From: a phage
Sequence record: OZ335961.1
Length of the DNA stretch: 64,000 nucleotides
Reading direction: 5' to 3' (one strand)
In this document: piece after piece, positions 45,764 through 47,166 of the stretch
Layout: each line of letters opens with the position of its first letter
Numbering within the stretch: the first letter of the stretch is position 1
The notes under the pieces: generated by a model
Databases searched by the model: none
Seen by the model: only the letters and a program-made list of their open reading frames with translations
What the model was told of the DNA's origin: nothing
Translations under genes and position numbers: made by a program

Positions 45764-45839
45764 TGGTCGAGGCAGTAGGGATCGAACCTACGACCTAGGA
45801 CTTAGAAGGTCCTTGCTCTTCCTTCTGAGCTATGCCTCG
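45764..45839 (-). tRNA. tRNA-Arg (anticodon UCU)
   Basis: Manual cloverleaf: 7-bp acceptor CGAGGCA/TGCCTCG, T-loop TTCGATC, anticodon loop CUUCUAA, CCA encoded. Confidence 0.8.
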
Positions 45840-45843
45840 TATT

Positions 45844-45918
45844 TGGCGGACATGCATGGATTCGAACCATGGACCAATTGATTAACAGTCAACTGCTCTA
45901 CCACTGAGCTACACATCC
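45844..45918 (-). tRNA. tRNA-Asn (anticodon GUU)
   Basis: Manual cloverleaf: D-arm GCTCAGTGGTAGAGC, anticodon loop CUGUUAA, T-loop TTCGAAT, CCA encoded. Confidence 0.75.
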
Positions 45919-45922
45919 AAAT

Positions 45923-46009
45923 TGGTGGGGAGTGGTGGAGTCGAACCACCCGAGTCGCAATGACAATGGATTTACAGTCCACACCGCTACCTCTACGGGA
46001 TAACTCCCC
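45923..46009 (-). tRNA. tRNA-Tyr (anticodon GUA), long variable arm
   Basis: Manual cloverleaf: acceptor GGGGAGT/ACTCCCC, anticodon loop CUGUAAA, 15-nt extra arm, CCA encoded. Confidence 0.7.
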
Positions 46010-46018
46010 AAATTAATT

Positions 46019-46093
46019 TGGTGGCCCTGGGTGGAATTGAACCACCGTCTGGCGATTATGAGTCGCTTGCTTGAACCTTCCAGCTACAGGGCC
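46019..46093 (-). tRNA. tRNA with anticodon CAU (Ile or Met)
   Basis: Manual cloverleaf: acceptor GGCCCTG/CAGGGCC, anticodon loop CUCAUAA, CCA encoded. Confidence 0.7.
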
Positions 46094-46094
46094 T

Positions 46095-46170
46095 TGGTGC
46101 TGATTGACGGAATCGAACCGCCGACCTTCTCATTACAAGTGAGTTGCTCTACCTACTGAGCTAAATCAGC
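46095..46170 (-). tRNA. tRNA-Thr (anticodon UGU)
   Basis: Manual cloverleaf: D-arm GCTCAGTAGGTAGAGC, anticodon loop CUUGUAA, CCA encoded. Confidence 0.8.
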
Positions 46171-46175
46171 AAAAC

Positions 46176-46265
46176 TGGCGGAGGCGATAGGATTTGAACC
46201 TATGAGTCGCCGGAGCGACTGCCGGTTTTCAAGACCGGTGCATTAAACCACTCTGCCACGCCTCC
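46176..46265 (-). tRNA. tRNA-Ser (anticodon UGA), long variable arm
   Basis: Manual cloverleaf: acceptor GGAGGCG, anticodon loop CUUGAAA, T-loop TTCAAAT, CCA encoded. Confidence 0.8.
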
Positions 46266-46271
46266 AAATAT

Positions 46272-46880
46272 TTATATATTGTTAATTTGATTTAGAATTC
46301 TTTTTGCTTGAGTATGACTTACGCCAATATGCTTAGCATATTTAGATAATTCACCGCGCTTAGAAAAATCATATAATTTAGAAATTTCTATTCTTCTTTT
46401 TCTTTCATCCGCAGAAACTTTTGCTTCGTTCGCTTTTGCTATTTTACGTTTAGCTTCTTGAGAATGAGTTTTACCAGCAAAGCCATTCTTCATTAATCCA
46501 TTTGAAGACCATCCTTTTAATTTTCCGTTAGAATGTGCCTTTTTAACACCCAATGAAATTAATTCGCGTTGCTGATCTGTCATAGGATAATTATTTATAT
46601 GATCCCATCCACCTTCACCGCCAAGTTTTAAATTATACACATCTGGTCTATTTAAAAACTCTTCTGTAACAATATTTTTCTCGGCTTCAAGCATAGATTC
46701 TTTATCATCAAAATACTCTAATATTTCTTTAGAGAAATTTTCTATACCATACTTATCTTGGGCTCGTTTTAATAATTTACCAGAACCCATATATCCATCA
46801 TCTAAATTTTCGGTAGAATGCACACCAATATAAATTTTATTATTAATTTTATTTGTTATTTTATAAAGATAAAAATGCAT
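46272..46880 (-). CDS. GIY-YIG homing endonuclease (Seg-like) inside the tRNA cluster
   Basis: Motifs FYLYKITN..KIYIGV; ATG 46880 with SD AGGGA; ORF-track start 46922 would abut tRNA-Gly. Confidence 0.8.
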   Translation of the reverse strand: MHFYLYKITNKINNKIYIGVHSTENLDDGYMGSGKLLKRAQDKYGIENFSKEILEYFDDKESMLEAEKNIVTEEFLNRPDVYNLKLGGEGGWDHINNYPMTDQQRELISLGVKKAHSNGKLKGWSSNGLMKNGFAGKTHSQEAKRKIAKANEAKVSADERKRRIEISKLYDFSKRGELSKYAKHIGVSHTQAKRILNQINNI

Positions 46881-46926
46881 ATCAGTCCCTAATAAAGAAC
46901 TGAGCGTCTCACGACGAGTCATAAAT

Positions 46927-47000
46927 TGGAGCGGATAATGAGAATCGAACTCACATCATCAGATTGGAAGTCTGAGGTAATACCATTATACGATATCCGC
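46927..47000 (-). tRNA. tRNA-Gly (anticodon UCC)
   Basis: Manual cloverleaf: acceptor GCGGATA/TATCCGC, anticodon loop CUUCCAA, CCA encoded. Confidence 0.75.
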
Positions 47001-47005
47001 AAATT

Positions 47006-47092
47006 TGGTGCGAGAAGTGGGACTCGAACCCACAAGGAAATCATTCCGCAGCATTTTAAGTGCTGTGCCTTTACCAATTTGACCATTCTCGC
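47006..47092 (-). tRNA. tRNA-Leu (anticodon UAA), long variable arm
   Basis: Manual cloverleaf: acceptor GCGAGAA/TTCTCGC, anticodon loop CUUAAAA, CCA encoded. Confidence 0.8.
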
Positions 47093-47093
47093 G

Positions 47094-47166
47094 CTGGGAA
47101 TAAAGGACTCGAACCTTTGCATCCTGGAATCAAAATCCAGTGCCTTACCAACTTGGCTAATTCCCA
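47094..47166 (-). tRNA. tRNA-Gln (anticodon UUG), CCA not encoded
   Basis: Manual cloverleaf: acceptor TGGGAAT/ATTCCCA, D-arm GCCAAGTTGGTAAGGC, anticodon loop UUUUGAU. Confidence 0.75.

Follow-up and report, generated by a model that had tools for sequence, protein, structure and literature searches.

We analysed a 64,000-nucleotide stretch of phage DNA (sequence record OZ335961.1; this whole stretch is called the window), in which a reading made from the letters alone had described a tRNA gene cluster split by a GIY-YIG homing endonuclease gene (HEG). The cluster is very probably a single Tequatrovirus tRNA operon that carries a mosaic HEG of the SegB family in the slot of tRNA-Pro, from which it would home into Gly-Pro-Ser alleles. 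The endonuclease is a clean natural module exchange and would provide a ready-made pair for studying how GIY-YIG target specificity is reassigned, while the repeated adjacency of its relatives to tRNA-Pro gives a testable prediction of its target. The same adjacency further suggests that particular tRNA genes are being removed from phage populations by selfish endonucleases, and such deletion matters because phage tRNAs counter tRNA-cleaving defences such as Septu.

Organisation of the tRNA cluster

ARAGORN, run over the whole 64 kb window, placed nine tRNA genes at 45764-47166, all on the minus strand. All nine exceeded the gathering score of Rfam RF00005, eight at 59-73 bits and tRNA-Tyr at 30.3 bits against a cut-off of 29. 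In the order of transcription they are Gln(UUG), Leu(UAA), Gly(UCC), Ser(UGA), Thr(UGU), a CAU-anticodon tRNA, Tyr(GUA), Asn(GUU) and Arg(UCU):

47093..47166, minus strand: tRNA-Gln(ttg); ARAGORN; Rfam 67.4 bits
47006..47092, minus strand: tRNA-Leu(taa); ARAGORN and Rfam; 87/87 against T4, T2L and T6
46927..47000, minus strand: tRNA-Gly(tcc); ARAGORN and Rfam; 74/74 against T4, T2L and T6; its CCA end is the left cassette junction
46176..46265, minus strand: tRNA-Ser(tga); ARAGORN and Rfam; CCA encoded; 90/90 against T2L; right cassette junction
46095..46170, minus strand: tRNA-Thr(tgt); ARAGORN and Rfam; 73/76 against T4
46019..46093, minus strand: CAU-anticodon tRNA; ARAGORN and Rfam
45923..46009, minus strand: tRNA-Tyr(gta) with a long variable arm; ARAGORN; Rfam 30.3 bits
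45844..45918, minus strand: tRNA-Asn(gtt); ARAGORN and Rfam
45764..45839, minus strand: tRNA-Arg(tct), T2L type; ARAGORN and Rfam; 75/76 against T2L, 49/70 against T4

These identities and their order are those that the sequence-only reading had proposed. Its Tyr and Asn calls are both supported by Rfam; tRNA-Tyr scores low but matches T6 tRNA-Tyr at 86 of 87 positions. The 661-base-pair (bp) Gly-Ser gap holds a single long open reading frame (ORF; 46272-46922, minus strand), and the Seg-like GIY-YIG gene that had been placed exactly between Gly and Ser is indeed there, with Pfam PF01541 above threshold. The T4 set that had been given (Gln, Leu, Gly, Pro, Ser, Thr, Ile and Arg) agrees with the T4 record. 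ARAGORN found no tRNA-Pro anywhere in the window; the sequence-only reading had found none in the cluster. A degenerate remnant was also sought and ruled out, the only matches in the window being generic tRNA motifs of 10-13 nucleotides (nt).

The 2.5 kb around the cluster matched 1031 phage records, chiefly from phages of Escherichia coli, Shigella and other enterobacteria. The records closest to the cluster region are Tequatrovirus, with best matches 95-97% identical, and the window genome is a Tequatrovirus, a T4-like coliphage. The parts shared with T4, T2L and RB68 are syntenic and 95-100% identical, and follow the plan of a T-even tRNA operon, with co-oriented tRNAs, then rnaD, rnaC and a terminator, and with the trna.2-4 ORFs and a middle promoter upstream.

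An identical arrangement of the nine tRNAs, interrupted by the endonuclease between Gly and Ser, was seen in JLBYU24 and RB68, both inspected directly; several more records align to the cluster region full length and in one piece, and KIT03, AR1 and RB18 have this layout plus tRNA-His and a 116-codon ORF. The endonuclease ORF is labelled 'truncated SegB-like protein' in RB51 and RB68, 'segD' in AR1 and 'segB' in RB18. The layout is thus not an unusual one, being already annotated in exactly this form in many public Tequatrovirus genomes. Variable tRNA sets and a SegB HEG in T-even clusters have been known since 2008 (PMC2330249), and the finding as first stated is ordinary. We found no description in the open-access literature of the SegB-like variant between Gly and Ser, its chimeric nature, its association with tRNA-Pro or a competition between two types.

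A SegB-family endonuclease with a different DNA-binding half

The gene in the Gly-Ser gap, its leader and its two halves are as follows:

46272..46880, minus strand: free-standing SegB-family GIY-YIG homing endonuclease gene; 202 amino acids (aa) from Met 46880
46881..46926, minus strand: endonuclease leader, 46 nt (T6 segB leader identity 45/46; RNAfold)
46590..46880, minus strand: catalytic GIY-YIG module, aa 1-97 (nucleotide identity to T6/T4 segB; AlphaFold2; Foldseek)
46275..46589, minus strand: C-terminal 'type B' DNA-binding half, with a linker, a NUMOD3-like GKTHSxExKxKI element and a tail with a putative helix-turn-helix (HTH), VSHTQAKRIL

An in-frame upstream ATG at 46922 would give a protein of 216 aa. 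This start was rejected because Met 46880 aligns with Met1 of T4 and T6 SegB, has AGGGA 6 nt upstream and is the start annotated in RB68; translation probably begins at Met 46880.

The protein matched PF01541 (26.8 bits; cut-off 22.6), PF19835 (25.8; cut-off 25) and, over its full length, phrog_314 'homing endonuclease' (E = 2e-54), and reached 47.6 bits against TIGR01453, under the subfamily cut-off of 56. Its sequence signature, catalytic fold and catalytic residues are those of the GIY-YIG family. Y6, Y17, G19, E67 and N83 were invariant in a 71-sequence alignment. Y17 and G19, both present in the window endonuclease (numbered from Met 46880), correspond to the positions altered in a T6 SegB without catalytic activity (Chihara et al. 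2026, PMC13096335). AlphaFold2 modelled the protein with a mean confidence score (pLDDT) of 87.7, reaching 91-98 for residues 1-90 and 82-95 for the helices at 141-201, with a disordered linker. When the catalytic domain was searched with Foldseek, the top matches were I-TevI structures (1MK0/1LN0; probability 1.00, target TM-score 0.61-0.65, 25-27% identity). A phmmer search of the protein against PDB chain sequences returned no match at E <= 1, and I-TevI was recovered by structure search only. I-TevI shares with the window enzyme the catalytic fold and the two domains joined by a flexible linker; its NUMOD3 element and its HTH at the C-terminus have putative counterparts in the window enzyme, and both are proposed to be under hairpin translational control; unlike the window enzyme, I-TevI is intron-encoded, has a zinc finger and targets td.

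Full-length homologues with 65-78% aa identity occur in the Klebsiella phage Mineola (YP_010096117) and in two metagenomic loci, L010 and L011 (Jiaodavirus and related). Compared with these genes and with segB, identity differed from segment to segment. The leader is 98% identical to that of T6 segB (45/46), 87% identical to those of L010 and Mineola, and unrelated to that of T4. The catalytic module shares 98% of its nucleotides with T6 segB (284/291), 95% with T4 segB (277/291) and 73% with L010 and Mineola. In the C-terminal half, identity to T6/T4 segB falls to 46-53% with large gaps, the background level for AT-rich DNA, and the BLASTP alignment to T4 SegB is confined to SegB residues 1-117. 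The same half is 85-86% identical to L010 at the nucleotide level and ~70% identical to Mineola at the protein level; the Mineola linker is 43% identical in nucleotides, with a 54-nt indel, and its tail 81%. The modules switch directly behind GGWDH(I/V)N, where the catalytic domain ends. Because the segments differ in this way, the endonuclease is a mosaic, with leader, nuclease module, linker and tail reassorted among these genes. L010, whose C-terminal half is far closer to that of the window gene than its catalytic module is, shows the module exchange.

Full-length orthology to SegB was not found, nor does the gene occupy the SegB position, the slot between Ile or Tyr and Arg. We therefore describe it, as far as sequence comparison goes, as a gene that shares the SegB-family catalytic module and not as a segB orthologue. 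Of the 'Seg-like' label in the sequence-only reading, the GIY-YIG family assignment stands, while a generic Seg gene gives way to a SegB-family mosaic with a different DNA-binding half. Within Tequatrovirus, two types can accordingly be distinguished by sequence, which share the nuclease module and differ in the DNA-binding half: type A, found in T4 and T6, and type B, found in the window. The type B family conserves GKxHSxExKxKIS (NUMOD3-like) and VSHTQARR.

The T4 segB gene is like the window gene in several respects. It lies in the same operon and belongs to the same family, is wedged between tRNA genes with few nucleotides to spare, displaced tRNA genes that related phages have kept, and has a leader that can form a hairpin over the ribosome-binding site. 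The two differ in slot, T4 segB lying between Ile and Arg, where it displaced Tyr and Asn, and the window gene between Gly and Ser, where Pro was displaced. Their leaders are unrelated, and their C-terminal halves cannot be aligned beyond a weak NUMOD3-like stretch, the tail reading 'PIPEGWFKGRK' in SegB and 'VSHTQAKRIL' in the window. T6 SegB is closer, with a near-identical leader and catalytic module and the same Y17 and G19; unlike the window gene, it follows tRNA-Tyr and has a T4-type C-terminal half.

The 'truncated' label given by the annotators of RB51 and RB68 would fit an inactive relic that no longer homes and fills the slot left by a lost tRNA-Pro. The limitation of the T4 SegB alignment to the N-terminal half could be read in the same way, and T2L trna.1 (see below) shows that remnants consisting of a DNA-binding domain only do persist in the cluster. 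We consider a relic very unlikely. The intact ORF aligns collinearly, end to end, with relatives of ~200 aa found in several phage lineages, it retains all of the invariant GIY-YIG residues, Y17 and G19 included, and its C-terminal half is at least 99% identical in 53 records without a frameshift. AlphaFold2 was confident in both domains, and 'truncated' reflects a comparison with the wrong C-terminal type.

Cassette boundaries and the predicted target at tRNA-Pro

Homology to T4 stops 8 nt beyond tRNA-Gly. The cassette starts there, at the junction between CCAATTTA and TGACTCG, and ends 6 nt before tRNA-Ser, exactly substituting the remainder of T4's Gly-Pro spacer, tRNA-Pro and the Pro-Ser spacer. 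The endonuclease cassette precisely replaces the tRNA-Pro of T4 and T2. The T6 segB cassette has the same junction, but after tRNA-Tyr. SegB cuts immediately 3′ of CCAR at tRNA 3′ ends (PMC2330249) and, given this preference of the T4 enzyme, the left junction lies at the expected cleavage position. Since the flanking Gly and Ser genes are identical in cassette-bearing and empty alleles, the replaced 86 bp remains as the sole difference nearby that could shield the phage from its own enzyme. The cassette shows a presence/absence polymorphism: the empty Gly-Pro-Ser allele was contiguous in 448 phage records, and the type B C-terminal half (at least 80% aa identity) was found in ~57. This polymorphism and the precise cassette boundaries support homing indirectly.

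Gene contexts were compared for nine type B relatives outside Tequatrovirus. In Mineola, L010 and L011, the order is Gly-HEG-Pro. These enzymes share with that of the window the 87% identical leader, the tail with the putative HTH and a position immediately 3′ of tRNA-Gly; unlike the window, they keep tRNA-Pro directly downstream, and the end of the ORF runs into it. The order is Pro-HEG followed by Gln or Ala in L012, L013 (Erwinia phage FBB1) and L014, and Pro(UGG)-HEG-Pro(CGG) in L017. Thus, tRNA-Pro adjoins the HEG in seven of the nine relatives, representing ~4 of 6 lineages. Taking the position of the cassette, its identical flanks, this adjacency to tRNA-Pro and the 448 empty alleles together, we infer that the type B enzyme probably targets the tRNA-Pro-bearing allele and that homing would erase tRNA-Pro.

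In the mechanism we propose, the enzyme would cut at or next to tRNA-Pro during co-infection with a Gly-Pro-Ser phage. Binding would most likely be in the 5′ part of tRNA-Pro, and the cut would probably fall after the CCAA of tRNA-Gly. Recombinational repair would then copy the endonuclease gene in and delete tRNA-Pro. Type B homing would in this way mirror that of T4 SegB, which cuts tRNA-Asn and erases Tyr and Asn.

Several points weigh against this interpretation. L015 and L016, two of the nine relatives, have no adjacent tRNA-Pro, and the seven that do have one amount to only about four independent lineages. The relatives with Pro-HEG followed by Gln or Ala keep the junction from the upstream tRNA to Pro, and one target geometry does not fit all contexts. 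The target of the type B enzyme is deduced from gene context alone. The HTH assignment draws on weak structural matches, Foldseek with the C-terminal tail giving HTH/homeodomain-like hits at E > 1, and NUMOD3 scored 20.1 bits, just under the Pfam cut-off of 20.4. The protein also bears the label 'truncated' in GenBank, yet measured against its own family it is of full length.

The order of events could also have been different, with tRNA-Pro lost first through an unrelated deletion and the cassette entering the Gly-Ser junction later, or arriving by illegitimate recombination; tRNA-Pro would then not be its target. There is precedent in T6, which lost Pro and Ser by a deletion that fused the 5′ half of Pro to the 3′ half of Thr with no endonuclease there, and the window has a 15-nt filler (AATATATAAATATTT), matching neither T4 nor Mineola, between the Mineola-homologous ORF end and tRNA-Ser. 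Such an order nonetheless seems unlikely to us, because none of the inspected loci and sampled rows, in a search that was not exhaustive, had Gly and Ser contiguous with neither Pro nor the cassette between them, and because the closest outside relatives have the order Gly-HEG-Pro with the ORF end running into tRNA-Pro. The latter arrangement points to insertion at the Gly-Pro junction, with loss of Pro following or accompanying it.

A different possibility concerns specificity. The enzyme might be as relaxed as T4 and T6 SegB, recognising the T-arm GGTTCRANTCC and cutting after CCAR, in which case tRNA-Pro would not be a specific homing target and the main role would be breakage of tRNA genes that drives recombination or segmental amplification under defence pressure, as for T6 SegB. 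The catalytic module is 95-98% identical to that of SegB, exact GGTTCRANTCC occurs in seven of the nine tRNA genes and in rnaC (Gly and Arg have variants differing at 1-2 bases), and the cassette starts 4 nt after CCAA, as in T6. In T6, SegB has 83 cleavage sites and brings about the amplification of tRNA-Tyr against Septu (PMC13096335). The specificity of GIY-YIG enzymes, however, comes mostly from the C-terminal domain (I-TevI; PMC2330249), which is unrelated here, and relaxed cutting leaves the repeated tRNA-Pro adjacency of the type B family unexplained. Moreover, an apparently optimal T4 SegB site is kept in the phage's own tRNA-Asn, where an enzyme of SegB specificity would damage its own genome. 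We give this alternative a low probability and prefer homing directed at the tRNA-Pro allele.

A further observation concerns the start and end of some type B genes. In the more distant relatives L013 (1434-1510/1501-2103), L014 and L017 (1426-1500/1501-2115), the HEG start codon falls within the 3′ acceptor strand of the tRNA-Pro upstream or directly behind it, and the stop codon abuts the following tRNA, with no space for a leader or a conventional ribosome-binding site.

Two endonuclease types in alternative slots of the T-even operon

A concatenated query of the type A and type B C-terminal halves matched 196 places in 196 records, none at 80% coverage or above, and no phage with both halves was found. 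Among ~1000 records matching the region, ~57 have type B and ~120 have type A; independence would predict some co-occurrence, in a count that ignores shared ancestry. A phage with both types would have two near-identical direct repeats of 340 bp, ~1 kb apart, which would be unstable given how highly recombinogenic the phage is.

Tentatively, the window gene could be a naturally retargeted SegB, in which leader and catalytic module recombined at the linker onto a NUMOD3/HTH module that directs cuts to the tRNA-Pro locus, with the two types competing; we see this extended reading as possible but do not favour it. If it is true, two SegB-family endonucleases with a common nuclease module vie for alternative slots of one operon, type A erasing Tyr and Asn and type B erasing Pro from recipient phages. 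HEG turnover, and not codon adaptation alone, would then set the tRNA content of T-even phages and also which tRNA-cleaving defences a phage can buffer.

The window tRNA-Asn gene touches on the same question. At 45842-45868, it has a close match (GGTTCGAATCCATGCATGTCCGCCAAA) to the preferred 27-bp T4 SegB site, in which all five positions that matter according to PMC2330249 (G6, A16, G18, A26 and A27) are retained. With this near-perfect site kept, the window phage should be a recipient for type A (T4-type SegB) homing.

Leader hairpin and translation of the endonuclease

The leader contains a predicted 9-bp hairpin (46882-46903) that holds the Shine-Dalgarno AGGGA in its 3′ arm and ends one base before the AUG (RNAfold -14.1 kcal/mol, z = -1.95). 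By burying the ribosome-binding site, it would probably keep translation low. In T4 segB, a hairpin occludes the ribosome-binding site (PMC2330249), and the T4 leader, which is unrelated in sequence, forms a stronger one (-19.4 kcal/mol, z = -7.6). That two unrelated leaders both fold over the ribosome-binding site suggests translational throttling of the endonuclease, for which the evidence is weak. The hairpin is only modestly stable (z ~ -2) and, when T6 and Mineola were compared, there were no double compensatory changes, which counts against such a role. Three substitutions, each on one side of the stem, leave the pairing intact in these two phages; so little variation does not suffice for a covariance test, and the covariation support is weak.

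Comparison with T4, T2L and T6

The gene order is Gln, Leu, Gly, Pro, Ser, Thr, Ile, segB, Arg, rnaD, rnaC in the T4 record; Gln, Leu, Gly, Pro, Ser, trna.1, Met, Tyr, Asn, Arg, trna.2, rnaD, rnaC in T2L; and Gln, Leu, Gly, a Thr-like hybrid, Met, Tyr, segB, Arg in T6. The window tRNA-Ser is identical to those of T4 and T2L, and T6 lacks tRNA-Ser. The CAU tRNA, Tyr and Arg of the window are T2L alleles, and CAU and Arg are not T4 alleles. The clusters of T2L, RB1 and RB3 (AJ880101) resemble that of the window in CAU, Tyr, Asn, Arg, Ser, Leu and Gly (from 63/73 to 90/90) and have rnaD and rnaC in common with it; unlike the window, T2L keeps tRNA-Pro, lacks Thr and an intact endonuclease, and has the ORF trna.2 within the cluster.

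According to Brok-Volchanskaya et al. (2008, PMC2330249), segB is absent from T2L, RB1 and RB3, and these phages have Met, Tyr and Asn. T4 SegB prefers a 27-bp site in tRNA-Asn, and its homing replaces a ~1250-bp T2L segment encoding Met, Tyr, Asn and Arg (PMC2330249). Because phages without segB have Tyr and Asn and SegB homing replaces them, having these two genes is the usual condition, and T4, in which segB has taken their place, is derived. This reverses the sequence-only reading, which had taken Tyr and Asn for additions.

T2L trna.1 (L005 584-985; phrog_16521), listed as of unknown function, resembles the DNA-binding half of type B at 41% identity, and its N-terminus is degenerate. We take it for a probable decayed HEG occupying a third slot, which in other phages holds tRNA-Thr.

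The T6 gene annotated tRNA-Thr (L008 2143-2217; AP018814.1 66642-66716) is a hybrid, its 5′ end (CTCCGTGTAGCTCAGT) coming from tRNA-Pro and the remainder from tRNA-Thr. Evidently, a deletion between similar D-arm sequences removed the 3′ half of Pro, Ser and the 5′ half of Thr. The hybrid may be non-functional, as its acceptor strands no longer look complementary.

Identity and alleles of individual tRNAs

The CAU tRNA matches T2L 'tRNA-Met' at 74 of 75 positions and T4 tRNA-Ile at 48 of 70, and the gene is distinct from T4's own tRNA-Ile. Full-length matches were found in 5425 of 5426 complete E. coli genomes (~71-82% identity, a median of two places per genome), and the best matches were annotated tRNA-Ile in all 12 sampled rows; one that was inspected had the anticodon CAT and an anticodon arm identical over its 15 nt (GCGACTCATAATCGC). 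The acceptor stem, GGCCCTG/CAGGGCC, includes C4-G69 and C5-G68, pairs that are determinants for TilS. In tRNA-Ile2 of the ileX/ileY type, C34 is modified to lysidine and the tRNA reads AUA, a codon used 10.7 times per 1000 in the ORFs of the window. ARAGORN and most GenBank records label this tRNA Met, and the earlier label was 'Ile/Met(CAU)'. The CAU anticodon stands, and the E. coli tRNA-Ile matches resolve the identity towards Ile: the gene probably encodes a lysidine-modified, AUA-reading tRNA-Ile2 and not a tRNA-Met. A reservation is that the call is based on similarity to E. coli genes. For T2L and the many other records that give 'Met', this would be a small annotation correction.

The tRNA-Tyr gene is also close to that of T2L (85/87), and T6 tRNA-Tyr has been studied experimentally (PMC13096335). 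The tRNA-Asn gene matches the T2L/KIT03 allele at 63 of 73 positions, with fully compensated changes in the anticodon stem and T-stem. The tRNA-Gln gene matches T4 at 65 of 73 positions; its anticodon stem differs from T4, T2L and T6 at 8 positions (CTGGA/TCCAG in the window, TAGCA/TGCTA in T4), with pairing intact in both. This Gln allele occurs in 313 phage records. The possibility that it travels with the type B gene, in a co-conversion tract or as a protective polymorphism, was considered and rejected: the allele is also present in RB3 and RB7, which have no endonuclease, and in IME537, ZCEC15 and F1, which have T4-type segB.

Operon signals and small stable RNAs

The T4 tRNA cluster is transcribed from a middle promoter just upstream (PMC2330249, citing Broida & Abelson), as one middle transcript reported to end after species 1 RNA (PMC2330249). 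Corresponding elements were located in the window:

47236..47263, minus strand: putative MotA-dependent middle promoter; MotA box ATTTGCTTTA, 12-nt spacer, -10 TATTAT
~45644..45762, minus strand: rnaD (species 2 small stable RNA) homologue; alignment to T4, RB68 and T2L rnaD
45498..45636, minus strand: rnaC (species 1 small stable RNA) homologue; 137/139 against T4, 138/139 against RB68
45418..45447, minus strand: intrinsic terminator closing the operon; hairpin 45424-45447 with a 10-bp stem, 7 G-C pairs, a GAAA loop and a T run

The promoter stretch is near-identical to the T4 sequence upstream of tRNA-Gln, and the operon has a putative MotA-dependent middle promoter in the same position. A sigma-70 promoter scan gave 6 sites against 8.3 in shuffled controls and was not used. 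One long transcript would run from the middle promoter through the nine tRNAs, rnaD and rnaC to the intrinsic terminator, and host RNases would release the individual RNAs, as established for T4. As in T4 (PMC2330249), the tRNA precursor would probably include the endonuclease mRNA. The tRNAs of the cluster would read codons heavily used by an AT-rich phage.

The structured RNA region and terminator that had been noticed downstream of the tRNAs correspond to rnaD, rnaC and the terminator with the 10-bp stem. No Rfam family matches rnaD or rnaC; permissive E-values gave chance-level isrK and anti-hemB only (14-17 bits against cut-offs near 50). As Rfam was uninformative, both were identified through homology to annotated features of T4, T2L and RB68. 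In rnaD, 103 bases matched the 119-nt T4 rnaD and 108 the 120-nt RB68 rnaD, and the predicted fold has -41.2 kcal/mol (z = -3.45 against shuffled controls). The rnaC fold is at -50.2 kcal/mol (z = -4.55 against shuffled controls) and contains, from 45520, a perfect tRNA-like T-arm motif (GGTTCGAATCC) inside the stem-loop CCGGGTTCGAATCCCGG. This motif is the core of the published SegB recognition consensus, and rnaC may therefore be an additional SegB-type cleavage site.

A short minus-strand ORF (45396-45548) overlaps rnaC, and its JLBYU24 equivalent (L001 584-745) is annotated as a hypothetical protein; it is almost certainly a spurious coding-sequence call over the species 1 RNA gene. The exact T4 late-promoter consensus TATAAATA occurs on the minus strand at 46269-46276 and 45410-45417. 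The first copy spans the endonuclease stop codon just upstream of tRNA-Ser, in the 15-nt filler, and the second lies just past the operon terminator, ahead of the ORF at 44896-45369. With 11 occurrences on the minus strand of the window, chance is possible.

Upstream of the cluster, a minus-strand ORF of 171 aa (47253-47768; phrog_2290, function unassigned, no Pfam match) lies between the trna.2 homologue (47753-48064) and the operon promoter. It is absent from T4, T6 and RB68, where trna.2 directly precedes tRNA-Gln, and its last codons overlap the MotA box.

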